Assembly: GCA_037310415.1 (NCBI GenBank)
Contig: CP147780.1
Coordinates: 864,001-928,000, forward strand
Source of the DNA: Candidatus Atabeyarchaeum deiterrae
Lineage (GTDB): Archaea; Asgardarchaeota; Atabeyarchaeia; Atabeyarchaeales; Atabeyarchaeaceae
DNA length: 64,000 nucleotides
Direction: 5' to 3'
Shown here: one piece after another, positions 9,754 to 36,332 of the stretch
Layout: each line of letters opens with the position of its first letter
Position numbering within the stretch: the stretch's first letter is position 1
Translations under genes and position numbers: made by a program
The notes under the pieces: model-generated
The model's input: only the letters and a program-made list of their open reading frames with translations
Databases searched by the model: none
What the model was told of the DNA's origin: nothing

Positions 9754-11178
9754 TTGTGCGCAGGCGGGTTTAGCCTGATTGAGAAGTTCTTTTCACCAAG
9801 AAGCATAGCCGTTGTCGGTGCGTCAAACAACCCAAACAGGTTTGGCTACAACGTGATGACGAATCTCATCGAAGCAGGCTTTGACGGGGATGTTTTTCCC
9901 GTGAGTCTGAAAGAAAGCATAGTATTTGACAGGGTAGCATACAAGAGCATACTAGACGTACCTGGAGCTGTAGATCTGGCTATCATGATCATACCAGCAA
10001 CCACAGTTCCCAGCGCTGTTGAGGAGTGCGGCAAAAAGGGAATCAAGGCAATTAGCATACTTTCTGGCGGTTTCAGTGAGGTCGGAAGAGAGGGAACTGA
10101 ACTCGAAGAGGAAGTCACGAATACTGCTAAACGATGCGGAATAAGAGTAGTCGGTCCCAACTGCGTCGGAACAATGAACACCCGCAAGAATCTAAACGCC
10201 TCCTTTGTAATGCGATCCATCAAAGGAAACATGGGACTCATCACTCAAAGTGGTGCACTTGGTGCATCATGTGCATATGTATCTAAGAGAGAAATGCTCG
10301 GCTTCAGCAAATTTGTCAACTTAGGCAATGCTTCTGACGTATCCGTCCCCGAAATCATACGATACTATACGCAGGATCCTGAAACCCGCGTGATCGGAAT
10401 ATACTTGGAAGGAGTAAAAGACGGTCGAAAATTCTTGGACGCTATCGGCGAAGCCACACCCATAAAGCCAATAGTGATTGTTAAAGCGGGCCGAACCGAA
10501 CAAGGTGCAAGAGCAGCATCGTCGCACACGGGATCACTTGCAGGATCAGACAAGATCTACAAAGCAATATTCAAGCAAAAAGGAGTAACGAGAGTCGGCT
10601 CATTATTCGAGTTAATCGACGTGGCCAAAGCTTTTACCAAACAACCCCTACCAAAAGGAAAACGCGTAGGAATAATAACCAACGCAGGCGGCGCGGGGGT
10701 ACTCGCTACAGATGCGTCCTCAGATTACGGCTTAACCATCTCATCATTAACACAGGAAACTGTAAAGTCCCTTAGAGCATTCCTGCCAGACGTTGCCATC
10801 CTCAACAATCCGGTCGACATCATTGCAAGCGCCAACAAAGATTGCTACCGCAAAACTACGGAAACTGTGGCTTCTGACGTGAATACTGATGCGTTGATTG
10901 TCAACTGTGTTGTTCCAACTTTCTTGGGCATGAAGCCTAGTGAGCATGCTGAAGGTGTTGTGGAAGCTTATAATAATTCAGTCAAAAGGCAGGGCAAGCT
11001 CCTCGTTTGTTGCTGGATGGCAGGGGAGCTAGCTGACCCCGGAAGAGAGATCCTTGAAAACGTAGGTATACCGGCGTACTCCTCTCCAGAAAGAGCAGCC
11101 CTAGCGGTCTCATGCTTGGCGAATTACAATGAATTCGCAACTAGGATCAAGAAACAGAGGAAAGAAAGAGATGGTTAG
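9754..11178 (+). CDS. acdA: ADP-forming acyl-CoA (acetate-CoA) ligase alpha subunit (start uncertain)
   Basis: PRSIAVVGAS, VVGPNCVG, QSGALG, ASSHTGSLAGS phospho-His loop, TNAGGAG, NPVD. Confidence 0.9.
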   Translation: MCAGGFSLIEKFFSPRSIAVVGASNNPNRFGYNVMTNLIEAGFDGDVFPVSLKESIVFDRVAYKSILDVPGAVDLAIMIIPATTVPSAVEECGKKGIKAISILSGGFSEVGREGTELEEEVTNTAKRCGIRVVGPNCVGTMNTRKNLNASFVMRSIKGNMGLITQSGALGASCAYVSKREMLGFSKFVNLGNASDVSVPEIIRYYTQDPETRVIGIYLEGVKDGRKFLDAIGEATPIKPIVIVKAGRTEQGARAASSHTGSLAGSDKIYKAIFKQKGVTRVGSLFELIDVAKAFTKQPLPKGKRVGIITNAGGAGVLATDASSDYGLTISSLTQETVKSLRAFLPDVAILNNPVDIIASANKDCYRKTTETVASDVNTDALIVNCVVPTFLGMKPSEHAEGVVEAYNNSVKRQGKLLVCCWMAGELADPGREILENVGIPAYSSPERAALAVSCLANYNEFATRIKKQRKERDG

Positions 11179-12208
11179 AGATCATTTGCCAGTCTTCAGA
11201 GAAGGAGATTTTCTCGAAACCCGCGACAACTTGATTTTCGACGTAAAAGGACTTCTTCACCCGCATGATAGAGTAATCGCTTTTCTCAGGTACTACCCCT
11301 CCGAAGACGGCGAAAGGATAAGAGAAGGGGTAAGATATCGAAAGGTATACTCTCTAGATGAAAGATTCAGTGTTCTCAAAGACAAGTTTCCTTCATACGT
11401 TTACTTCGACAAGGTCTATGACTCAATAATGCAAGGCGTACCAGTGAACGATGTAGCACGCCTGTACCAACCAACTGAGAAACTGACAGAGATGTCAAGC
11501 AACCGCGCAACTCTAGACAAATTCGAAAGAGACTCATTGGAGTTCTGTGAAATCCTTTCTGGCTGTGCTTCTGTCAACATCAATAGACTGGGTTTGAGCG
11601 GCTCAATTCTAGTAGGTCTACACAACTTAAAATCAGACATTGACATAATTGTCTACGGTTCTGAGAGCTGTCTCGCAGTATATGGAGCGTTGAATAATCT
11701 TTACAGTAATGCAGACTCCTCAATAAGACCTTACAACGACGCAGAACTGAAAAAATTGTTCAGCTTCAGGTCAGCTGATACTGTTACTAGGTGGGAATCC
11801 TTCCTAAGAACTGAGAGAAGAAAGCGGCTTCAAGGAAAATTCAAAAACTACGAGTACTTCCTGCGGTTCATCAAAGACTGGAAGGAATTGAAGCTGAACT
11901 ATGGAGATCTAACCTACAGATCTCTCGGAAAGGTAACCATCAAAGCCGAAGTCGCCGACGATAGTGAAGCGCTCTTCACCCCATGTATCTACAAGATCAA
12001 GAATGCTGAAATAGTCGAGGAACAAGAAGCGAGAGAACTCATCATAGACGAAATTGCCTCTTTTCGAGGAAGATTTTGTGAAGTTGCTCGGAATGAAGAG
12101 CCCATAAGTGCTAGAGGAAAACTGGAACTTGTTATCGACAAGTCTGGCAACACTCATCATCGCGTTATCGTTGGCGGAGAGAAAGATGATTTTCTGACGC
12201 TATCATAG
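11171..12208 (+). CDS. Predicted archaeal nucleotidyltransferase (COG1665-like), copy 1
   Basis: FDVKGLLHPHDR..LRYYP, GLSGSILVG..SDIDIIVYG (GS..DxD NTase motif). Confidence 0.75.
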   Translation: MVRDHLPVFREGDFLETRDNLIFDVKGLLHPHDRVIAFLRYYPSEDGERIREGVRYRKVYSLDERFSVLKDKFPSYVYFDKVYDSIMQGVPVNDVARLYQPTEKLTEMSSNRATLDKFERDSLEFCEILSGCASVNINRLGLSGSILVGLHNLKSDIDIIVYGSESCLAVYGALNNLYSNADSSIRPYNDAELKKLFSFRSADTVTRWESFLRTERRKRLQGKFKNYEYFLRFIKDWKELKLNYGDLTYRSLGKVTIKAEVADDSEALFTPCIYKIKNAEIVEEQEARELIIDEIASFRGRFCEVARNEEPISARGKLELVIDKSGNTHHRVIVGGEKDDFLTLS

Positions 12209-12252
12209 TCAGGGTGAGAGACCTGACAATTCGAAAAGGAATGTGAAACCCA

Positions 12253-13329
12253 TTGAGAAAACCCAAAGATCGCGATTTCATAAGGACGACAGAAGACCTC
12301 TTATTTTGTGTTGTCGGTTGCCTCCATCCGCATGACAGATTGTTATCTTACCTCAAGTATATCCCAAGTGACAGCGGGATTTGGGCTTCAGGAGATCTGC
12401 ATTTTAAGAGAATGATACCATACTATTCTGCCAAGTCCGTTATCGACACTCACTCGTTTCTCAAGGAAGAATACCCCAAGTACCTGTTCTACAGCCGGGT
12501 GAACGACATAACTTTTCCAGCGGTTCCTCGCTCTGAGATCAAGGAATACTATGAGCCAGAAGTCAGGTTGAAAGAGTTAGTGGGAAGAAAAGGTGAACTT
12601 GATGAACTTCAGCGTAAGGCAGTGGAATTGGCTGAGTATCTCTCTAGTAGAAGTGGGGTTCCTCTTGATAGATTTGGGGTCACTGGCTCCATCCTGCTGG
12701 GGATTCACAATGTGTCAATCTCTGACGTTGACCTCACGATCTATGGACACGAGAATGCATTGCTTGTGAAACAGGCTCTAATTAGAGAATTCGAGAACAC
12801 TGAAAACCCATCAAGGTTAAGGCAACTCAACGAAAGTGAAGCAGAGGACTGGTGCACAAGGAAAACCAGACAATTCTCAATCGATTATGGATTTGCGGCG
12901 GCGATTTTGAGGAAGAAGTGGAATTTCGGATTCTATGAGGAAAAGTTCTTCTCTATTCATCCAATCAAACTTGACTCTGAGATAACTGAAATATACGGTG
13001 AAAAAGAATTTACGAGCAAAGGCACAGTGGAGATTATTGCAGACGTTGCTGATAGCACGGAGGCGCTATTCAACCCTGCGTCCTATAAAGTGAATGAAGT
13101 TCGGATACTAGAAGGGTTGAAGGTTAACGACATAGAAGAAGTAGTTTCCTTCGAAGGCTTCTTTTCTGACCTTGCTTCAAACAATGAATCGATCAGGGTG
13201 AAAGGGAATCTTGAAACTGTCACAGGCGTCAGAAGTGGGAAGAAGTACCACAGAGTAGTTGTCGGTTCGAAGAACGTCTCTTCCCCTGAGTATATAATCC
13301 CCATATCCCAACTAAAAGAAGAGATATAG
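12253..13329 (+). CDS. Predicted archaeal nucleotidyltransferase (COG1665-like), copy 2
   Basis: KDRDFI, HPHDR..LKYIP, GVTGSILLG..SDVDLTIYG; colinear with the preceding paralog. Confidence 0.75.
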   Translation: MRKPKDRDFIRTTEDLLFCVVGCLHPHDRLLSYLKYIPSDSGIWASGDLHFKRMIPYYSAKSVIDTHSFLKEEYPKYLFYSRVNDITFPAVPRSEIKEYYEPEVRLKELVGRKGELDELQRKAVELAEYLSSRSGVPLDRFGVTGSILLGIHNVSISDVDLTIYGHENALLVKQALIREFENTENPSRLRQLNESEAEDWCTRKTRQFSIDYGFAAAILRKKWNFGFYEEKFFSIHPIKLDSEITEIYGEKEFTSKGTVEIIADVADSTEALFNPASYKVNEVRILEGLKVNDIEEVVSFEGFFSDLASNNESIRVKGNLETVTGVRSGKKYHRVVVGSKNVSSPEYIIPISQLKEEI

Positions 13330-13338
13330 AATACATAA

Positions 13339-13378
13339 ATCACAGGATAAACTGGTTAATCCAGTCTATCTTGCTCAT
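13339..13378 (-). promoter_or_regulatory. Eukaryote-like SECIS element (distal) of vhuU
   Basis: AUGAG-CAA-GAUAGACUGG-AUUAA-CCAGUUUAUC-CUG-UGAU: UGA/GA core, 10-bp stem, AA in apical loop. Confidence 0.75.
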
Positions 13379-13412
13379 CCGCAAAGGGGTTCAAATGACC
13401 TTTGCAAAGGTT

Positions 13413-13458
13413 GTCCCCACCGGCCACCTTTTTTGAGGCTTTGCGCCGGCTGGTTCAT
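13413..13458 (-). promoter_or_regulatory. Eukaryote-like type-II SECIS element (proximal) overlapping the vhuU stop codon
   Basis: AUGAA-CCAGCCGGCGC-AAA-GCCU(CAAAAA)AGGU-GGCCGGUGG-GGAC; same architecture as the selD element. Confidence 0.75.
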
Positions 13459-13604
13459 CCGCTTCCAATCTGAACCTCTTTCTTGAGTATCTCCTTGTTG
13501 TTTTCGTCTAAGACAAGGAGATGTGCTGCACACGAAAGTCAACAGTCGTAGCAGCGGACGACCATCTCCAACAGGTTAAGCACTTTCTCATCTACATCGG
13601 GCAT
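13455..13604 (-). CDS. vhuU: Selenocysteine-containing small subunit of F420-non-reducing hydrogenase (49 aa; Sec UGA at 13539-13541)
   Basis: [49 protein letters not shown]; supplies the C-terminal Ni-ligand motif absent from the upstream large subunit; missed by the ORF track. Confidence 0.93.
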
Positions 13605-13632
13605 GTTTTTCTACCTCTTGTTTCTAGACAAA

Positions 13633-15000
13633 TTAGATTTTGATCATCGGCTTTGGTAACTTCAGCGTCTCATACACTTTGTCTTCAATTACCTGCTTGG
13701 CAATAATCTTCAGCGACTTCTCTATCGCCCCGACATTGTTATTAGTGGCAACTATGAGGTTTGCCTTGGTTATGATTCCTTCCTTGTTCGTCCAGTAGTT
13801 GTGGACTAGTAGTCCTCTTGGTGCTTCCACAACGCCAGCGCCGACCCCTTCCCGTGGCTCAACTGTTTCAAGTTTGTAGTCTTTGCTCACGATATCGGGA
13901 TCTTCAAGCAACTTCTTGGCTTTTCCTATGGCGTCGAGTAGCTCAATGACTCTCGCCCAGTGATAAGCAAATGTAGCATGGCACGGCCTTCCGACCTTGT
14001 CTCTGAACTGTTTCAGAGCTTCGTTTCCTCGGGGTGTTGCCATTCGGTCCGCTACATTTATTCTTGCCAATGGCCCGCCTCTCCACAATCCATTTGGGTA
14101 GCCAGCTGGTTTGTAGAATACATGTGTTGCGTAGCAGTGTGGAACAACCTGTTCCCCGACGACATCCATGTATTTCTGGGTCGGAGTGTCTGACTCGATC
14201 TTGCCTAATGGAGACACCACTCTGATGTTACCGTCATAGAAGTTGTGTTCCCCATTCTGGGTCAGTCCGACATAGTATGTCTCGAACACTCCAATTTTGG
14301 TTATGACATCCCAATAGTCTTCAACGATCTTCAACAAGAGTCCAGCAGTGAACTCACCAAGCTCCATGGCTCTATCCATTCTCTTGAGCCACTCATCTCT
14401 CTTCCCCTCAGTGAGTCCCTTGGTCATTCCTCCAGGAATTGCTGTGACTGGGTGAACAGACTTCCCTCCGATTTCCGCGCAAAGTTCTTGGCCGTGTTTC
14501 ATAAGTTCAATGGCCTTCTTGCCCGCGTCTGGCATTTTGTTGATTACAGTCACAACATTACGAACCTCTGGTGGCGCGAAGGGTCCCAAGAGAAAATCTG
14601 GGGCTGCAAGCACGTAGAGGTGGAGTGCGTGACTGCTAATCTGCTTTGCTAGCAAGAGCAGTTCTCTTAGCTTCTTCGCCGGTTCCGGCGGGTTAATATC
14701 CCAGGCGGCTTCAACCGCTTTCACAGATGCTAGGTGGTGTGGCTCAGGACAAATACCACAGATGCGAGGTGCTATTATACGCGCATCTTCAGCAAGCCTC
14801 CCTTCGAGGAACTTCTCGAAGAACCGAGCAGAAGTCACGTTGAATTGAACGTCAGAGACCTTACCTTTAGTAAGCTTGATTGTGATCGAACCATGCCCTT
14901 CCAGTCGAGTAACAGGATCGATCTTGATGATCTCGCTTTCTTTTTCGGCCTTCGTTGAGCTAACTTTCTCAGCTTTGATTGGGCTCGCTTTGCTTTTCAT
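13633..15000 (-). CDS. vhuA: Group 3c [NiFe(Se)] hydrogenase large subunit lacking C-terminal CxxC
   Basis: IDPVTRLEGH, RICGICPEPH, EAPRGLLVH, ANLIVATNNN; ends before the L2 motif. Confidence 0.92.
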   Translation of the reverse strand: MKSKASPIKAEKVSSTKAEKESEIIKIDPVTRLEGHGSITIKLTKGKVSDVQFNVTSARFFEKFLEGRLAEDARIIAPRICGICPEPHHLASVKAVEAAWDINPPEPAKKLRELLLLAKQISSHALHLYVLAAPDFLLGPFAPPEVRNVVTVINKMPDAGKKAIELMKHGQELCAEIGGKSVHPVTAIPGGMTKGLTEGKRDEWLKRMDRAMELGEFTAGLLLKIVEDYWDVITKIGVFETYYVGLTQNGEHNFYDGNIRVVSPLGKIESDTPTQKYMDVVGEQVVPHCYATHVFYKPAGYPNGLWRGGPLARINVADRMATPRGNEALKQFRDKVGRPCHATFAYHWARVIELLDAIGKAKKLLEDPDIVSKDYKLETVEPREGVGAGVVEAPRGLLVHNYWTNKEGIITKANLIVATNNNVGAIEKSLKIIAKQVIEDKVYETLKLPKPMIKI

Positions 15001-15908
15001 TTCTTCTTTACACTCCTAAGCTTAGATAGAGATGATGAGGCATACGTGAACTTGTACAGTTGTCCAGCAGGATCTTTGAATGAATCGAGCATTTTCTGTG
15101 GTTCCATATCTGCTATACCCCCAAAGGTTCCGATGAGTCTTGACCCTTGGTCAACCACGCCATCGGGAGGACCGCTGCATCCCTTGCACGGATGGTTAGC
15201 GGTTGGGCATTGAGCTCCACAGCCAGCCCTTGTTCCAGGACCCATGCAGATATAACCTTGATTCAAAAGGCATTTCTCCATGTCAGGTCTGCCTTCAAAA
15301 TCTCGTTTGAACTCCTTTACATTCTTCTCCTCTTTCTTCCTCTCACATTCGTCGCATATAGTCTTAATCGAGTGTTCAAGGGGCTTTCCAGTGAGGACAC
15401 ACAAGGCAGCATTCGCGATTTCCTCAGAGGTCGGTGGACAACCGGGGAGGCAAACGTCAACTTTGACTAATTGGTCGTTTCGCGGCACAAAATTGGTTAT
15501 CGGCGGCACGTTCTCAGAAGGAATCGTGTCTCTGTTTGAGAGTGTTTCAGCCTTCAAGTATTTCCTTTCTAGAAGTTCTCTCTTGGGGTAAAGATTAGCT
15601 ATGCTCGGTACTCCTCCAAAGCAAGAACATGAGCCCAATGCCACCAGAGCCTTAGCCTTTTCTCTGCATAATTTGAGAAGATGAACATCTTCTTCAGTTC
15701 GACACAGACCCTCAATGAACGCAGCGTCAATCGAACCTTTTGGCATTTTCTCAAGATGATCAAGTTTGAAATCTACAGCCGCAACCCAGTATTGGATGTC
15801 GATGAGGGGCAAGATGTCAAGCAATTTCTCGTGAAGGTCTAGGAGTGACTGATGACAGCCCCAGCAACTTGACAGTTGCATGAAGACAACTTTCTTCTTG
15901 TCGGCCAT
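14997..15908 (-). CDS. vhuG: F420-non-reducing hydrogenase small (Fe-S) subunit
   Basis: SSCWGC, GSCSCFGG, PGCPP, CDEC, CLLNQGYICMGPGTRAGC..CP..PCKGC. Confidence 0.92.
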   Translation of the reverse strand: MADKKKVVFMQLSSCWGCHQSLLDLHEKLLDILPLIDIQYWVAAVDFKLDHLEKMPKGSIDAAFIEGLCRTEEDVHLLKLCREKAKALVALGSCSCFGGVPSIANLYPKRELLERKYLKAETLSNRDTIPSENVPPITNFVPRNDQLVKVDVCLPGCPPTSEEIANAALCVLTGKPLEHSIKTICDECERKKEEKNVKEFKRDFEGRPDMEKCLLNQGYICMGPGTRAGCGAQCPTANHPCKGCSGPPDGVVDQGSRLIGTFGGIADMEPQKMLDSFKDPAGQLYKFTYASSSLSKLRSVKKK

Positions 15909-15910
15909 GT

Positions 15911-16396
15911 TTACTTCACTTCCACGCTATAAAGTTCCTTCTCGTCAAGGCCTTGTTTTCCTTTGCTATCCTTGAGAGGGTTCGGACCGATCTTTTTCAG
16001 AACCTTCACGTAATCCTTGATGACTTCTGCAAGCTTACTTCCCTCACTTGCTGATATCCATTCAAGACGAATACGCTGCGGCTCTAATCCCGCTTGCTCG
16101 ACGAGCTTCCTGAGAAGATGTATTCGCCGTTCTGTCTTGTAATTACCGTTGACATAGTGACAGTCGCCAGGGTGACAACCTGAGACAAGGACTCCGTCAG
16201 CACCCAACTCCAACCCTTTCATCACATACTCTGGGGCAAGGCGACTCGTACACATAACTCTGACAAGTCGCAGGTTAGGTGGGTATTGAATTCTGCTGGT
16301 TCCCGCCATATCGGCACCTGCATAAGTGCACCAGTTGCAGACAAGTCCAAGAATGTATGGCTCAAATTCGTCATTCTTCTCGTTGCTGTGACTCAT
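15911..16396 (-). CDS. mvhD: Hydrogenase/Hdr [2Fe-2S] delta subunit (Cys form)
   Basis: CNWCTYAGADMAG, RVMC, GCHPGDCHY, WISASEG. Confidence 0.93.
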   Translation of the reverse strand: MSHSNEKNDEFEPYILGLVCNWCTYAGADMAGTSRIQYPPNLRLVRVMCTSRLAPEYVMKGLELGADGVLVSGCHPGDCHYVNGNYKTERRIHLLRKLVEQAGLEPQRIRLEWISASEGSKLAEVIKDYVKVLKKIGPNPLKDSKGKQGLDEKELYSVEVK

Positions 16397-16420
16397 GAGA
16401 CAATTCCTCCCCTATTTGCT

Positions 16421-18370
16421 CTACCTCTCTGCCAGTAATGCTTCAATTTGGGCAAGGATCTGTGAATCTTTGAAGTGGTTCTGGGTTATCGAGCCACTCG
16501 GGCATGTAGCGACACAGCACCCGCATCCCTTGCACAACACATTGTTTATCTTCGCTTTTCCATCTTCAATTGATATTGCACCAAAGGGACACATTGCTAT
16601 GCATGACAAGCAGCCGCTGCACTTGTCAGTGTTGACGATGCTGTAGAATGGCTCTACCTCAACTTTACCTTTAGACATAAGTGATGCGGCACTTGATGCG
16701 GCTCCTTTTGCCTGCGCGACTGCATCAGGAATGTCTTTCGGTCCCTGTACAACTCCAGCTATAAAGACTCCATCAGTAAGAGTGTCAACTGGTCTGAGCT
16801 TCGGGTGAGCCTCAAGATAGAAACCATCGGTGCTACGTGATATCTTAAGTAGGTGTTGGACTTCCTCCACATCATTTCTTGGCACGAGACCCACACTGAG
16901 GACAACAAGGTCAGCTTCAACTTCAACTGGTCTTCCAAGCTCAGTGCTCTCTGCACGAACAAATAGGTTCTTAGTCTTGGGATCCTCCAAGACCTCAGCT
17001 GCTCTGCCTCGAATATAGTTGACGCCGTACTCCCTTTGAGCGCGCTCATAGAATTCTTCATAGCCTTTGCCGAACGCACGGACATCCATGTAGAGCACAT
17101 AGGTGGCTGTATCTGGATGATGTTCCTTAAGTTGTCTAGCATGTTTCATTGCGTACATGCAGCAAACGCGAGAACAGTACGCATTCTTTCTCACGTTTCT
17201 CGATCCGACGCATTGGATGAAAACTACTCGCTTAGGTACTTTCAAGTCGGAGGGTCTGACAACTTCGCCTCCTGTGGCTCCAAATGCACTAAGCATTCGT
17301 TCTACTTGCATACCGGTCACGACATTGTCAAATGTTCCGTATCCGTATTCTCCCGTAGGATCATAAGGGTCGTAGCCAGTCGCAGCTATGACTGTTCCAA
17401 CCTCAACCTCTTCTTCGGTTGGCTGCTGGTTGAAGTCAATAGCTTCGGGTTCGCACGCCTTAACGCAGAGTTTGCATTTCACACATTTATCCATGTCAAT
17501 AGTGTACTTGTTGGGTACGGCTTGAGGAAAAGCCATGTAGATAGCCTTCCTAGGCTTAAGTCCTAATTCAAATTCGTTGGGAACGTAAACGGGGCACACC
17601 TCTTCGCATTTGCCGCATCCATTACACTTGGATTCAATGACATATCTTGGCTTTTTCTCTATCTTCGCTTTGAAGTTTCCAACATACCCCTCTATGCTTT
17701 TGACTTCTGAATAGGCATGGAGTTTTATGTTTGGATGACGACCTACTTCAGTCATCTTAGGGGTGAGAATGCATGCTGAGCAGTCCATGGTTGGGAAAGT
17801 CTTATCGAGTTGGATCATTCGTCCGCCGATCGTGGTGTTCTTCTCAACTAGGTGAACTTCAAAACCCGCCTCTGCGAGATCCAAGGCAGCCGAGATCCCC
17901 GCTATTCCTCCGCCTATTATCAAGGAACTTCTCTTCACAGGGACTTCGATTACTTGTAGCGGTTCTATCTTTGAGGCTTTGGCTACAGCAGACCGTATGA
18001 GATCCTTTGCTATTTGAAGAGCTTTCTCAGGCTCGTGCATATGGCACCAAGTGTCGTGCTCCCTGATATTGGCTTGTTCAAATAGATAGGGATTAATGCC
18101 TGCACCTTTGATAGCATTTCTAAACGTCGGCTCATGCATCAGTGGGCTGCACGCTGCCACTACTACTCTATTCAGTTTCTGCTCCTTGACGTCATTTTTT
18201 ATCATTTCCTGACCAGGATCGCTACACATGAACCTGTAATCCTTAGCTAGCACAACATTGGGCAATTTCGAAGCATAATCTGCGAGCCCTTTGACGTCAA
18301 CAACGCCAGCGATATTCGTGCCACAGTGGCAAACATAAACTCCTATTCGAAGCTCTGATTCATCTGCCAT
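16421..18370 (-). CDS. hdrA: Heterodisulfide reductase subunit A (Cys form)
   Basis: RIGVYVCHCGTNIAG, AACSP, GGGIAG, LDKTFPTMDCSACIL, CVGSR, CSRVCC, EAHPKLRPVD. Confidence 0.96.
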   Translation of the reverse strand: MADESELRIGVYVCHCGTNIAGVVDVKGLADYASKLPNVVLAKDYRFMCSDPGQEMIKNDVKEQKLNRVVVAACSPLMHEPTFRNAIKGAGINPYLFEQANIREHDTWCHMHEPEKALQIAKDLIRSAVAKASKIEPLQVIEVPVKRSSLIIGGGIAGISAALDLAEAGFEVHLVEKNTTIGGRMIQLDKTFPTMDCSACILTPKMTEVGRHPNIKLHAYSEVKSIEGYVGNFKAKIEKKPRYVIESKCNGCGKCEEVCPVYVPNEFELGLKPRKAIYMAFPQAVPNKYTIDMDKCVKCKLCVKACEPEAIDFNQQPTEEEVEVGTVIAATGYDPYDPTGEYGYGTFDNVVTGMQVERMLSAFGATGGEVVRPSDLKVPKRVVFIQCVGSRNVRKNAYCSRVCCMYAMKHARQLKEHHPDTATYVLYMDVRAFGKGYEEFYERAQREYGVNYIRGRAAEVLEDPKTKNLFVRAESTELGRPVEVEADLVVLSVGLVPRNDVEEVQHLLKISRSTDGFYLEAHPKLRPVDTLTDGVFIAGVVQGPKDIPDAVAQAKGAASSAASLMSKGKVEVEPFYSIVNTDKCSGCLSCIAMCPFGAISIEDGKAKINNVLCKGCGCCVATCPSGSITQNHFKDSQILAQIEALLAER

Positions 18371-18622
18371 ACGTACTTACCTTCCAGACTTGTTGTAGTA
18401 AACAAATGAGCCGAGTGATATGATAACGTGTTCATGTTAACCGATATTAATCATTTATATATTTTCGTGCTTAACTTTGATGTTCAAGCAATCCATACAA
18501 TCAGCAGTTCTCGATTCTATCGTTCTGCAGCGTTATCCCTTGTTGTCTGTCTTTGATTGTCGCATAAATAGGTTTTGAAACAGACAACTAGTTTTACGTT
18601 TCATACAGACGAGAGAAACTTA

Positions 18623-19519
18623 TCACTCGTTGGGAAGTAGCAAGAACATTTTGTCAATTAGGTTCTTGGTCTTCACTTTATGTGTTCCCAGTCCTAGCTC
18701 GTCGGAATTCATCCCAAATGCTATTCCAAGCAATTCGGGTAGATATACAACAGGTAGGTTGGAATCTACCTTCTTAGAGCCGCGTAGTTCAATTTGACCG
18801 GTATCGTACTGTAAGAAGCAAGTTGGACAAATAGTGAGCAGGCAATCAGCACCGGAGCGTTTCGCTTTTTCAATTTTCTCGTAAGTGAGATCCAACGACT
18901 CATCTTTATTCATGCTTCTGACCGCTGCCCCGCAGCACAACATTTTTCTCATGTATGGTATGCTACGTGCACCAGTAGCTTCTACTAGATCGTCGAGGAT
19001 GTGTGGTTCTTCCGGGTCGTCAACTTTGAGAATCGAACTCGGTCTCAGAACATGGCAGCCGTAGTGTGTGGCAACGTTTATACCAGTTAGGCTAGTAACA
19101 ACGTTCTCCCTTATCTTCCTGACACCAACTTCCTTGTACAAGACTTCAATCAGGTGCTTGACATCGATACTTCCTTTGAAGCTTCTACCTATCTTCCCGA
19201 GTACGGCATTTACTCTTTCTTTCAGTTTTCCATTATTTTTCAAAGTCTCATTCGCGGTCTTGAGCGTTTCAAAGCAACCATTACATAAAGTGAGTATATT
19301 GCGACCCATATCCTCGGCTATCGATAAGTTTCTCGCTGCCAGGGATAACCATGTGGCATAATCAAGGGACTGGATTGCCTCAGGATCAGGGCAGCAGCTA
19401 GCTTCTTTCATGTCTATTAGCTTAACATCTAGCGCTTCCAGTACTCTTCTCGCTGCAGCCTCTAGATTTGGCAACCGGAGAGGAATCATGCAACCAAGGA
19501 ATAGCGCATATTCTGTCAT
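18623..19519 (-). CDS. hdrB: Heterodisulfide reductase subunit B
   Basis: FLGC, SCCP, LAARNL, CNGC, HYGCH, CCG, CPTCFLQYD (two CCG domains). Confidence 0.92.
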   Translation of the reverse strand: MTEYALFLGCMIPLRLPNLEAAARRVLEALDVKLIDMKEASCCPDPEAIQSLDYATWLSLAARNLSIAEDMGRNILTLCNGCFETLKTANETLKNNGKLKERVNAVLGKIGRSFKGSIDVKHLIEVLYKEVGVRKIRENVVTSLTGINVATHYGCHVLRPSSILKVDDPEEPHILDDLVEATGARSIPYMRKMLCCGAAVRSMNKDESLDLTYEKIEKAKRSGADCLLTICPTCFLQYDTGQIELRGSKKVDSNLPVVYLPELLGIAFGMNSDELGLGTHKVKTKNLIDKMFLLLPNE

Positions 19520-20055
19520 CCCTCTGCTCCCCCATTTTCACATTCAGCTACCAGTTTGTCTAATCCCATCGCCTTGATGATCTTTCGTACTTCCTCTACG
19601 TTAGCGGTGGGGGCAGGGGAGAGACCAAGCGACTCCCTTCTCTTGGTTATTGCTGGCATCAGTGGAATTGACCAACCAGTAGAATATATCTGATTCAGCT
19701 CAGCTTTGATGTGCTCTTTAACGTCTCCATTTTGGGTTGCCTTATTCCGTAAGGCTAGTATTACATGTGACGGTTTGACTTGTTGAGGGCATCGTTCCAC
19801 ACAGGCGTGGCAGAGTAGGCATAACCATATGCTGGACGGTGAAATCTTGTCTTCTTTTTTCAGTAGAAATCTTTGCACGATCTTCCTAGGATTGAAGTCA
19901 GCATTTCTCTTGGCTATGGGACACCCACCTGTGCAGATGCCGCACTGATAACAAGGTTTCACCATGTGCTGGGCTTCCGCTTCTAGAGTATCATCTGTAA
20001 CGTCGAAAGGCTTGCTGGGTTTGGGGGTATCAGCGCTTGCTTCTTGTTGTTGCGT
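19516..20055 (-). CDS. hdrC: Heterodisulfide reductase subunit C (first ATG at 19965; possible ACG start at 20055)
   Basis: CYQCGICTGGCP and WLCLLCHACVERCP; open frame extends back to an ACG 9 nt after GGAGG. Confidence 0.88.
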   Translation of the reverse strand, partial: TQQQEASADTPKPSKPFDVTDDTLEAEAQHMVKPCYQCGICTGGCPIAKRNADFNPRKIVQRFLLKKEDKISPSSIWLCLLCHACVERCPQQVKPSHVILALRNKATQNGDVKEHIKAELNQIYSTGWSIPLMPAITKRRESLGLSPAPTANVEEVRKIIKAMGLDKLVAECENGGAEG

Positions 20056-20091
20056 ATATCTCTGCCTCCGTTCGCTGCGGCGCGCGTTAGC

Positions 20092-20862
20092 TCAATTTAG
20101 CAGTGGCTCTTCTAATAGTATCTTTCTAACTGCTTGAAATGCTTTTGAGTTTTCAGGTAGCTCAAGCAATGAACGTCCTTCCATATTGTATTTTGCCACC
20201 AACTCATCGCTAGGTACAATTCCACCGTAGTCAGCTCCTATCTCTTCAGCTTTTTTTCTAATCATGTCCCCAAGTTCCTCTGGCAGACGATTACCCAGAA
20301 GAACCATTCTCTCAATCTTATTTCCCTCAATCTTCTCGGTAAACTTCTTTATCCTTGCGGCGGTTTCTAGACCCATACGTGATGAATCAGTAAGAACATA
20401 CATCAGATCAACGCTACGAGAAGTCCTCCTTGTTATGTGTTCAAGTCCAGCTGGGAGATCCATGATTACCAAGCGGTAGTTCTTTGCAAGTGTATCAACT
20501 ATATTGGCCAGCATAACATTGGGCATGCAGAAGCATCCCTCTTTCTCCACTGCTCCCATCACAAGGAGATCAAACTGTTCTCCTTCGTGAAGTAAGCCGA
20601 ATATTTTTGTCTCAAGGAATGCGTCCTTGTTGAAGTCTTTGGGTAGACTATCAATCTTATCCTTCATATCATGGACAGCCATAGCTACCGTTCCCTTAAC
20701 GTCGACATTGAGAACTTCACGCATATTGGCATCAGGATCGGCATCAACAACCAGGATTCTGTCCAATCCATTAGACAGGAATGATTTCAATACTAGGGCC
20801 ATAAATGATGTTTTGCCCACGCCGCCTTTGCCGGATGAAGCAATAGTAATGCCATCTTTCAA
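20092..20862 (-). CDS. cooC: CooC/AcsF-type nickel-insertion ATPase
   Basis: GKGGVGKT, VDADP, GCFC, D.PAGLEH. Confidence 0.85.
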   Translation of the reverse strand: MKDGITIASSGKGGVGKTSFMALVLKSFLSNGLDRILVVDADPDANMREVLNVDVKGTVAMAVHDMKDKIDSLPKDFNKDAFLETKIFGLLHEGEQFDLLVMGAVEKEGCFCMPNVMLANIVDTLAKNYRLVIMDLPAGLEHITRRTSRSVDLMYVLTDSSRMGLETAARIKKFTEKIEGNKIERMVLLGNRLPEELGDMIRKKAEEIGADYGGIVPSDELVAKYNMEGRSLLELPENSKAFQAVRKILLEEPLLN

Positions 20863-21210
20863 TCAACTCACCAGTCAAATGACCGTCTTTAGGCATGATT
20901 AGTCGATGAAATGACTTAGCGAGATGGATTCTTTTAAACATAATCCTTACTCGAAGAGCGCATACACCTCAGCATATTGCCATGTCATTATCATCAAGAG
21001 TTCGTCGACTGGATTAGAGTCTGGCAAGTAACTTTGTTAACTACCACGGCTCAATACTAATTCCATTTGCCTGCACGAAGCACCATTCGTTTTTTTGAAT
21101 AGGTCTGCTACAACATAAAGACTCATTAATGAATCCTTAATCTTATAACATCTGAGAGTCAAAACTCAGTAGCTCCTTGTTATAACGGCAAAGCTAGAGA
21201 TGTTGACAAG

Positions 21211-35243: not shown

Positions 35244-36278
35244 TTAGAGAGATTTAGGTTAACCAAGTCAGTTAGAGAGCATGGTTGAAGCTGCAAGATA
35301 CCTCAGAATGAGTTGACCCATCTCCTAGAACGGGCTGGTCTCTCGCAGATCGTCGCCGGTGAGAACATTCTCGCGGGGCCGCTACCAGCTGAAGACGCAG
35401 CCATTATCAAGATAAACGAAGAAACCTGCCTTGTGCAATCACTCGACTTCTTTACACCAATCGTTGATGAACCAATAACCCAAGGAGAGATCACTGCGTG
35501 CAATGTCACTAATGACCTCTATGCCAAAGGTGCCATAAACGTCCTTGGCGTTCTGGTCATCATGGGTTTTCCACCAGAGATGCCCAAGCCGATTGCCGTG
35601 GATCTTCTCAAGGGATTCAGCAACTTCTGTCAAAGACTCGGGACTCAAGTGATTGGCGGCCATACCATAACAAATCCCTGGCCCATTCTTGGAGGAGCAG
35701 CGACTGCGTCAATGAGAATTCGAGACGTAGCATACAAGAAGGGAGTAGAAGCCGGAGATAACTTGATACTTACAAAACCACTCGGAGTTCAACCAGTAAT
35801 GGCTGCATACCGATTGCTTAAGGAAGAAGTTCTCAACGAGGAACTTCTAAGTACAATGTCCCGCAAGACTATCAACGAAGCAATCAAGAAGACGATCAAC
35901 TTGATGACAACGAGTAACAAACCTGTTGCCGAGGCAATGCAGGAAGTCAAGGTAAATGCAGCAACAGACGTGACTGGGTTCGGTCTCGTAGGACATGGAT
36001 CGGAGTTGGCTGAGCAGAGTCACGTCGACTTGGAAATTACGACAATGCCATTGGTGAAGGGGAGCATGCAGATATCGGACATCCTCGGCTACTCGCTCAG
36101 GGATGGGCGCGCTCACGAAACTGCCGGTGGCATGCTGCTTTCTCTCTCGCCTGAGAAAACCGAACAGTTTGTTGAAGTTCTACGTGAGCGCCGGGTTACT
36201 CCCTTCTTGATTGGAAAAGCAAGGGTCGGAACAGGTAAAGTCAAACTCGCTAAGGATCTGCAATATCTAGAAGTCTGA
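35244..36278 (+). CDS. selD: Selenide, water dikinase, Sec-containing (UGA at 35286-35288); start codon non-canonical or uncertain
   Basis: Upstream in-frame LERFRLTKSVREHG-U-SCKIP (UxxK motif), EDAA, DFFTPIVD, DLYAKG, GGHT, LTKPLG, TDVTGFGL.GH, ETAGG. Confidence 0.93.
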
Positions 36279-36289
36279 AGCAGCACTCG

Positions 36290-36332
36290 ATGAAGGGAGA
36301 AAGCAAACTACGAAAGTAGATTTCTTCCTGAA
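36290..36332 (+). promoter_or_regulatory. Eukaryote-like type-II SECIS element in the selD 3' UTR
   Basis: AUGAA-GGGAGAAA-GC-AAA-CUAC(GAAA)GUAG-A-UUUCUUCC-UGAA; outer GAAGCAGC/GCUGCUUC helix. Confidence 0.88.

Follow-up and report, generated by a model that had tools for sequence, protein, structure and literature searches.

The small open reading frame at positions 13604-13455 (minus strand) of the window, the 64,000-nt stretch of Candidatus Atabeyarchaeum deiterrae DNA analysed here, is best explained as the gene of the selenoprotein VhuU followed by one type II SECIS element that overlaps its stop codon, with the hairpin further downstream being a lineage-specific feature and not a second SECIS. 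We give this reading as a whole a probability of about 0.85. The recoding of the Sec codon of vhuU is accordingly predicted to be directed by one SECIS, at 13458-13414. The host genome consists of a single contig of 2.76 Mb, and its closest named relative is SRVP18_Atabeyarchaeia-1 (85% identity in VhuA), which places the host among the Asgard archaea, in the class Atabeyarchaeia.

According to its translation, vhuU opens with an ATG at 13604 and comprises 49 codons and a terminal UGA (13457-13455). An in-frame UGA at codon 22 (13541-13539) falls inside the Ni-ligand motif DCUxxCxxH and is predicted to be read as selenocysteine, which would be the first C-terminal Ni ligand. The gene follows vhuA (13633-15000, minus strand; 455 aa), which encodes the large subunit of a [NiFe(Se)] hydrogenase (Pfam NiFeSe_Hases), after a gap of 28 nt, and closes a same-strand series in the order hdrCBA-vhuDGA-vhuU, in which vhuG, vhuD, hdrA, hdrB and hdrC were assigned by Pfam and lie upstream. 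Both hdrA and vhuD were examined for an in-frame UGA and contain none, and the operon is therefore regarded as having a single Sec codon. Among solved structures, VhuA is matched best by the large chain (9sfi_g) of a split enzyme. Residues 4-29 of VhuU align to 9sfi_M, the solved 27-aa VhuU chain of this split enzyme, and also to residues 423-457 at the C terminus of the fused MvhA (DPCLSCATH in MvhA). Because the open reading frame aligns to both of these chains and VhuA matches 9sfi_g, sequence comparison provides a sound identification of the small open reading frame as VhuU, a peptide that corresponds to the separated C terminus of the large subunit in an Hdr-linked [NiFeSe] hydrogenase. 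VhuA carries the N-terminal RICGIC motif at residue 79 and lacks the C-terminal DxCxxCxxH Ni-ligand motif, and the DCUxxCxxH motif is kept in 109 distinct Asgard vhuU homologues. These results support the claim of the preliminary description that VhuU, with its in-frame UGA, supplies the Ni-ligand motif missing from VhuA.

The 21 residues that follow His28 of VhuU are absent from the solved mature chain 9sfi_M. Hydrogenase large subunits usually undergo C-terminal cleavage, and the missing VhuU tail fits that pattern; the tail is therefore probably a cleaved extension. In comparison with the VhuU of Methanococcales, the large subunit is split in the same way, the Sec residue has the same position and a SECIS lies in the 3'UTR, but the euryarchaeal SECIS (GAA_A bulge type) represents another structural type. 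In all split, Sec-containing Asgard VhuU sequences that were examined (13530-13553 of the window, minus strand, and 109 related loci), a Cys stands beside the Sec residue (D-C-U), and the residue before this motif is often also Cys (R-C-Y-D-C-U). The fused Cys-type homologues differ in having D-P-C in place of D-C-U.

The SECIS arm was located at 13458-13414 (minus strand) from its predicted fold, a family covariance model and covariation in 94 homologues. Its AUGA (13458-13455) encloses the stop codon UGA at 13457-13455. After one A, the nine positions of helix II pair 13453-13445 with 13424-13416 (CC-A-GCCGGC with GGCCGG-U-GG). The unpaired AAA bulge (13442-13440) lies 12 nt after AUGA and leads into a 4-bp ministem, GCCU/AGGU (13439-13436 with 13429-13426), and the core is completed by GA at 13415-13414. 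The preliminary description had proposed both a type II SECIS at this site and an AUGA core that contains the gene's own stop codon, and both proposals are borne out.

The comparative evidence comes from 109 distinct Asgard vhuU 3' ends collected from genomes and metagenomes, 94 of which were used to build an alignment (A1) and a covariance model (R1), with the window's own sequence excluded. In A1, all nine pairs of helix II covary and 89.6% of the cells are paired, a result reached by none of 500 shuffles, and sliding the partners by a single column makes the pairing collapse. Of the three bases of the AAA bulge, one is invariant across the 94 homologues and the other two are at least 90% kept, again 12 nt after AUGA, and the AAA of the window sequence aligns to these columns. 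The ministem likewise covaries in the vhuU family, reading CCCU/AGGG in the relative L138 and GCCCC/GGGGG in L020. The top match of R1 in the 64-kb window spans 13386-13464 (22.9 bits, E=0.0023). An Rfam scan of 12000-21000 with E values up to 10 matched no eukaryotic SECIS family. Overall, the sequence evidence points to a genuine, eukaryote-like type II SECIS at 13458-13414, which is predicted to work like a eukaryotic SECIS, yet is no member of an Rfam SECIS family by score.

As in eukaryotic type II elements (e.g. that of SEPHS2), the vhuU element has the AUGA/GA quartet, helix II, an AAA bulge 11-12 nt after AUGA, a ministem and a location in the 3'UTR with a distance requirement to the UGA. 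It differs from them in its shorter helix II (9-10 positions versus 12-15), in overlapping the coding sequence and in lacking a match to the Rfam SECIS models. It resembles the Asgard lokiSECIS in its AUGA...GA core, its stem of ∼9 bp, its A-rich apical start and its position at the end of the gene. However, a ministem (type II) is present here and in other Atabeyarchaeia, whereas type I has been reported as the major form in the family.

Much of this agrees with published work. The selenoprotein VhuU and eukaryote-like SECIS elements of Asgard archaea have been described (PMC4989117, PMC11227280), as have SECIS types I and II across these archaea (PMC4989117, PMC11227280), and VhuU is listed among the selenoproteins of each Atabeyarchaeia genome (Valentin-Alvarado 2024, PMC11291895). 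The overlap of AUGA with a UGA stop was noted for Loki VhuU.1 by Mariotti et al. 2016 (PMC4989117). Of the 109 Asgard vhuU genes, 102 use UGA as their stop codon, and in 95 the stop codon falls within AUGA. The view that a stop codon within the core is unusual is therefore not upheld, given that most of the family shares the arrangement and that it was described in 2016.

The preliminary description had further proposed that a second, type I-like SECIS lies in tandem with the first. A hairpin is indeed present at 13378-13340 (minus strand) and is stable (-15.8 kcal/mol, z=-3.8, no shuffle as good). Its AUGA (13378-13375) is followed by a stem that pairs 13374-13361 with 13355-13342 around a 5-nt loop, AUUAA, and then by U-GA, with the GA at 13341-13340. 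The existence of the hairpin, with its AUGA and GA, thus stands, but its role as a type I-like SECIS does not, and its core is not kept. The helix spans 14 positions (13 bp and one A.C mismatch) compared with 9-10 in Asgard eukaryote-like SECIS elements. At the distance where the family keeps its unpaired AAA, this hairpin has none, and its bases 13-15 nt after AUGA are either paired or AU. R1 aligns only the flanks of the hairpin (GCGGAUGA and the U-rich tail) and skips its core (10.9 bits, E=1.2). At the site of the distal AUGA, the three nearest relatives read GGAUUAAG (L138), AGAUUAAG (L142) and UGAUUGAG (L019, Atabeyarchaeia-1), i.e. AUUA or AUUG. Because all three have U at the position in question, the G needed for a sheared G.A pair is specific to this genome. 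The alignment of vhuU 3' regions across Asgard genomes therefore divides the two elements: the proximal arm is kept with covariation, and the distal AUGA is not kept in the nearest relatives. Failing on the AAA, the helix length, the covariance model and the conservation of AUGA in the nearest relatives, the distal hairpin does not sustain the claim of two tandem SECIS elements. Two AUGA..GA hairpins in one 3'UTR would resemble the arrangement in vertebrate SELENOP and Metridium MsrB, but those genes contain many UGA codons and two conserved elements, whereas vhuU has a single UGA and a second hairpin that does not pass the defining tests.

The surroundings of the distal hairpin suggest a different role. 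Ten nucleotides separate it from the stop codon of a convergent gene (12253-13329, plus strand; 358 aa), which was taken from the open reading frame list and bounds the 125-nt intergenic space. This gene matched no Pfam family, and its orthologue occupies the same position in Atabeyarchaeia-1. In a consensus scan the hairpin is marked as terminator-like. Behind it comes a U-rich tract, AUUCUAUAUCUCUUCUUUU (13335-13314, minus strand), which matches the pyrimidine-rich 3' end of R1 and overlaps the convergent gene at its end. At the equivalent place, Atabeyarchaeia-1 has a different hairpin, of at least 10 bp. Most likely, as judged from the sequence, the distal hairpin is a lineage-specific, terminator-like structure and not a second SECIS, and our best guess is that it acts in transcript 3'-end formation or stability. 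Archaeal termination is not known to require hairpins. As a separate observation, the plus strand at 11129-13329 carries two tandem genes of ∼358 aa that have no Pfam family and are convergent with vhuU.

Two other readings of the distal hairpin were weighed against this one. If it were a functional second SECIS, recently acquired in this lineage and boosting or backing up Sec insertion at the single UGA, the U.U, G.A, A.G quartet could arise from its AUGA and (U)GA flanks, and its sharing of GCGGAUGA with the proximal element would be accounted for. It would also fit the loosest published type I model (stem of 7-15 bp, loop of 8-20 nt; PMC11227280), provided that its two top pairs were opened. 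The loose pattern AUGA-helix-GA is frequent (953 occurrences in the genome versus 590 in a shuffled copy), but only 5 of the 1182 stable hairpins in the genome have both AUGA and GA flanks, an uncommon coincidence for the distal motif, and we therefore keep a small probability for a second SECIS. Against it stand the 14-position helix, where 9-10 would be expected, the core skipped by the covariance model and the lack of an unpaired AAA 11-12 nt after AUGA, a motif present in 94 of 94 homologues and in the genome's own selD SECIS. The G of AUGA is replaced by U in the three nearest relatives, in which the shared GCGGAU is ancestral. Moreover, second matches to the SECIS pattern occur in 5 of 73 vhuU 3'UTRs of 300 nt, near the chance rate of 1 per 5.8 kb, and neither hdrA nor vhuD offers a UGA that could use the distal element. 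We consider a second SECIS very improbable.

The hairpin might instead have no function and be a neutral palindrome between convergent genes, its AUGA and GA flanks being coincidental. Its sequence is not kept even within the family (the homologous stretch of L138 forms no hairpin in its minimum-free-energy fold), and it occurs as a single copy in the genome, both of which this explanation would accommodate. It accounts less well for the stability of the hairpin, matched by no shuffle, for the hairpin of at least 10 bp at the equivalent place in Atabeyarchaeia-1, for the stable hairpin that likewise follows the SECIS of selD and for the U-rich tract; absence of function is thus rather unlikely, if a more serious contender than a second SECIS. 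Further candidates were rejected: a repeat family or mobile element, given the single copy; a C/D-box sRNA or canonical K-turn, by reading, with neither a RUGAUGA/CUGA pair nor a C-stem; and a SECIS serving hdrA or vhuD, neither of which has an in-frame UGA.

Between the SECIS arm and the distal hairpin, the preliminary description had placed a third hairpin, GCAAAGG/CCUUUGC. This middle hairpin (13405-13381, minus strand; -9.2 kcal/mol, z=-2.4) does occur in the minimum-free-energy fold, but its pairing is not supported by the homologues. It uses bases of two other structures, a small hairpin and a long helix that we call helix I, and so represents an alternative fold. The small hairpin, ACCUU-UGCA-AAGGU (13411-13398, minus strand), lies directly 3' of the SECIS arm and is aligned as a hairpin by R1. 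Across the 94 homologues its stem is paired in 92% of cells and its loop reads YGCA(A). Stem variants include GGCG/CGCC, CUC/GAG and CCCC/GGGG, with a closing pair of A-U, G-C or G-U; the stem shows little covariation because it is mostly CCC/GGG. The small hairpin is nearly universal in Asgard vhuU, as is complementarity between a segment of the 3'UTR and the last codons. In the window, this complementarity forms the proposed helix I, in which 13 of 14 positions pair between AAAGAGGUUCAGAU (13481-13468, minus strand), within the coding tail at codons K-E-V-Q-I, and AUUUGAACCCCUUU (13396-13383, minus strand), in the 3'UTR.

Support for helix I comes from several kinds of comparison. In the relatives L138 and L020, the coding tail pairs with the respective homologous segment, UCUGAAUCUCUUU and GAACCUCUUUG. 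Of 12 diverse relatives, 11 are predicted to form an equivalent helix, and the consensus fold calculated for 35 Heimdall-type sequences also contains one (GUUGGCUU/AAGCCAAC). Among Thor-type sequences, changes match on both strands (AAGGAAC/GUUCCUU versus GGAAGGAG/CUCCUUCC, and AGUGC..GGGC/GCCCGCACU versus GUGAC.GGCG/CGC.GGUCGC). Coding tails pair better with their own UTRs than with those of other sequences, the mean best helix being 10.2 bp compared with 8.7 ± 0.14 bp in permutations, none of 2000 of which reached the observed value, and at least six long-range pairs are found in 89% of cases compared with 60% of composition-preserving shuffles. These statistics are weakened because purine-rich coding tails face pyrimidine-rich UTRs. 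RNAduplex energies between coding tail and UTR have a high background, helix I was absent from the RNAalifold predictions for the Thor-type and "other" alignments, and a fixed-anchor diagonal scan for coding tail/UTR pairing gave no runs.

The selenophosphate synthetase gene, selD, on the plus strand of the same window, offers a comparison. It has an in-frame UGA within HG-U-SCK (∼35286-35288) and a stop UGA at 36276, and its SECIS (36290-36331) is of type II with a design as in vhuU: AUGA-A-GGGAGAAAG-C-AAA-CUAC-GAAA-GUAG...GA. A 9-bp helix, GAAGCAGC/GCUGCUUC, encloses the SECIS arm and a small hairpin, GCCAG..CUGGC, and the region is predicted to fold into a three-part shape like that of vhuU (helix, SECIS arm and small hairpin). 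A second long, stable hairpin follows the selD SECIS.

We propose from these comparisons that the functional SECIS element in Asgard vhuU genes, and in selD here, is a three-way junction of helix I, the AUGA/GA arm and the hairpin with the YGCA(A) loop, which would switch itself off at its own stop codon; this is a tentative proposal, to which we give less than even odds. Helix I would be made of the last 15-40 nt of the coding sequence, i.e. of the cleaved C-terminal extension, and of the 3'UTR. A fold that lacks helix I and the small YGCAA hairpin, and in which GCAAAGG/CCUUUGC forms a spacer hairpin between the SECIS and the distal hairpin, would agree with the minimum-free-energy structure of the window sequence and with the z score of the middle hairpin (-2.4). 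However, it is favoured over the helix I fold of the whole region by only 0.5 kcal/mol (-37.3 versus -36.8 kcal/mol), and the relatives do not keep the middle pairing but keep the small hairpin and the tail-complementary 3' segment, and we regard this layout as improbable. For the VhuU (FrhA/MvhA) family, Huang et al. 2024 give only a 3-bp YGG_CYR lower stem (PMC11227280). This published stem uses bases of the small hairpin, and the small hairpin and the tail-complementary segment both overlap it. Neither PMC4989117 nor PMC11227280 describes the small hairpin 3' of the arm or the long helix I, and no description of the three-part architecture was found in the literature searched on Asgard SECIS elements; it is the only point of this analysis that is possibly new.

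The Sec machinery on which the preliminary description depended was found in the genome: SepSecS (487 bits), SelB (286 bits), a PSTK-like kinase, the Sec-containing selD and an intron-split tRNA-Sec. The PSTK-like gene (E=5e-49) scores below the curated cut-off, but it lies in the Sec gene cluster and is kept in the sister genomes. The tRNA-Sec gene (208758-208936 of the genome contig) belongs to the same cluster, 0.8 kb from SepSecS, where an Rfam scan gave a weak match of 25.9 bits, below the curated cut-off. By reading, its acceptor stem has 9 bp (GGCGCCCGA/UCGGGCGCC), its anticodon stem 6 bp, with CUUCAAA in the loop, and its T stem 4 bp; the discriminator is G73, CCA is encoded, and three introns interrupt the gene, in the D-loop, the variable arm and the T-loop. 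In two sister genomes the exon blocks are invariant and the inserts variable, with a change from U.G to C-G in the anticodon stem. Because of these introns, the gene was missed by three custom pattern scans of the genome, which found no tRNA-Sec gene. A search with RF01852 of the host genome and five relatives returned only intron-bearing tRNA-Val and similar genes, and the "tRNA-SeC" that ARAGORN places at 246125 was rejected as a tRNA-Arg(UCG) with an intron. With its intron mode off, ARAGORN reports no more than 7 tRNA genes for the entire genome of 2.76 Mb. The same Sec machinery is reported in the Atabeyarchaeia genome paper (Valentin-Alvarado 2024, PMC11291895). Elsewhere on the genome contig, at ∼459987 (plus strand), a candidate selenoprotein gene has an in-frame UGA within ..NVC-U-VGPV.. 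and an AUGA..AAA..GA element with a possible ministem ∼305 nt downstream of that UGA; this gene may encode the Prx-like protein that the genome paper lists.

Taken together, the proposed architecture suggests how two UGA codons of one short gene could be read differently. The SECIS would recruit SelB with Sec-tRNA to the UGA ∼83 nt upstream of its core. A ribosome at this Sec UGA would stand ∼57 nt short of helix I and the element would still be folded, whereas with a ribosome at the stop UGA helix I would be melted and the core covered, and the same triplet would terminate translation. In this way the element would serve the upstream Sec UGA but inactivate itself at its own stop codon. The VhuU tail, absent from the solved mature chain, would probably act as a cleaved extension, as the ∼83-nt spacer between Sec codon and core and as one strand of helix I. 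That a minimal distance might explain why the stop UGA is not recoded was put forward by Mariotti et al. 2016 (PMC4989117), and we infer that the self-melting model amounts to this idea with a structural reason added. No SBP2 is known in Asgard archaea (PMC4989117).

In conclusion, the finding as first put forward rediscovers published biology, and its sole unusual claim, that of tandem SECIS elements, does not hold. The conserved context of the vhuU element, namely the stop inside the core in 95 of 109 genes, the small hairpin and the pairing with the coding tail, is a lead possibly worth a specialist's look. If true, it would provide a concrete structural basis for the reading of one UGA as Sec and of the following one as stop, and it would add a piece to the transition from archaeal to eukaryotic SECIS elements.
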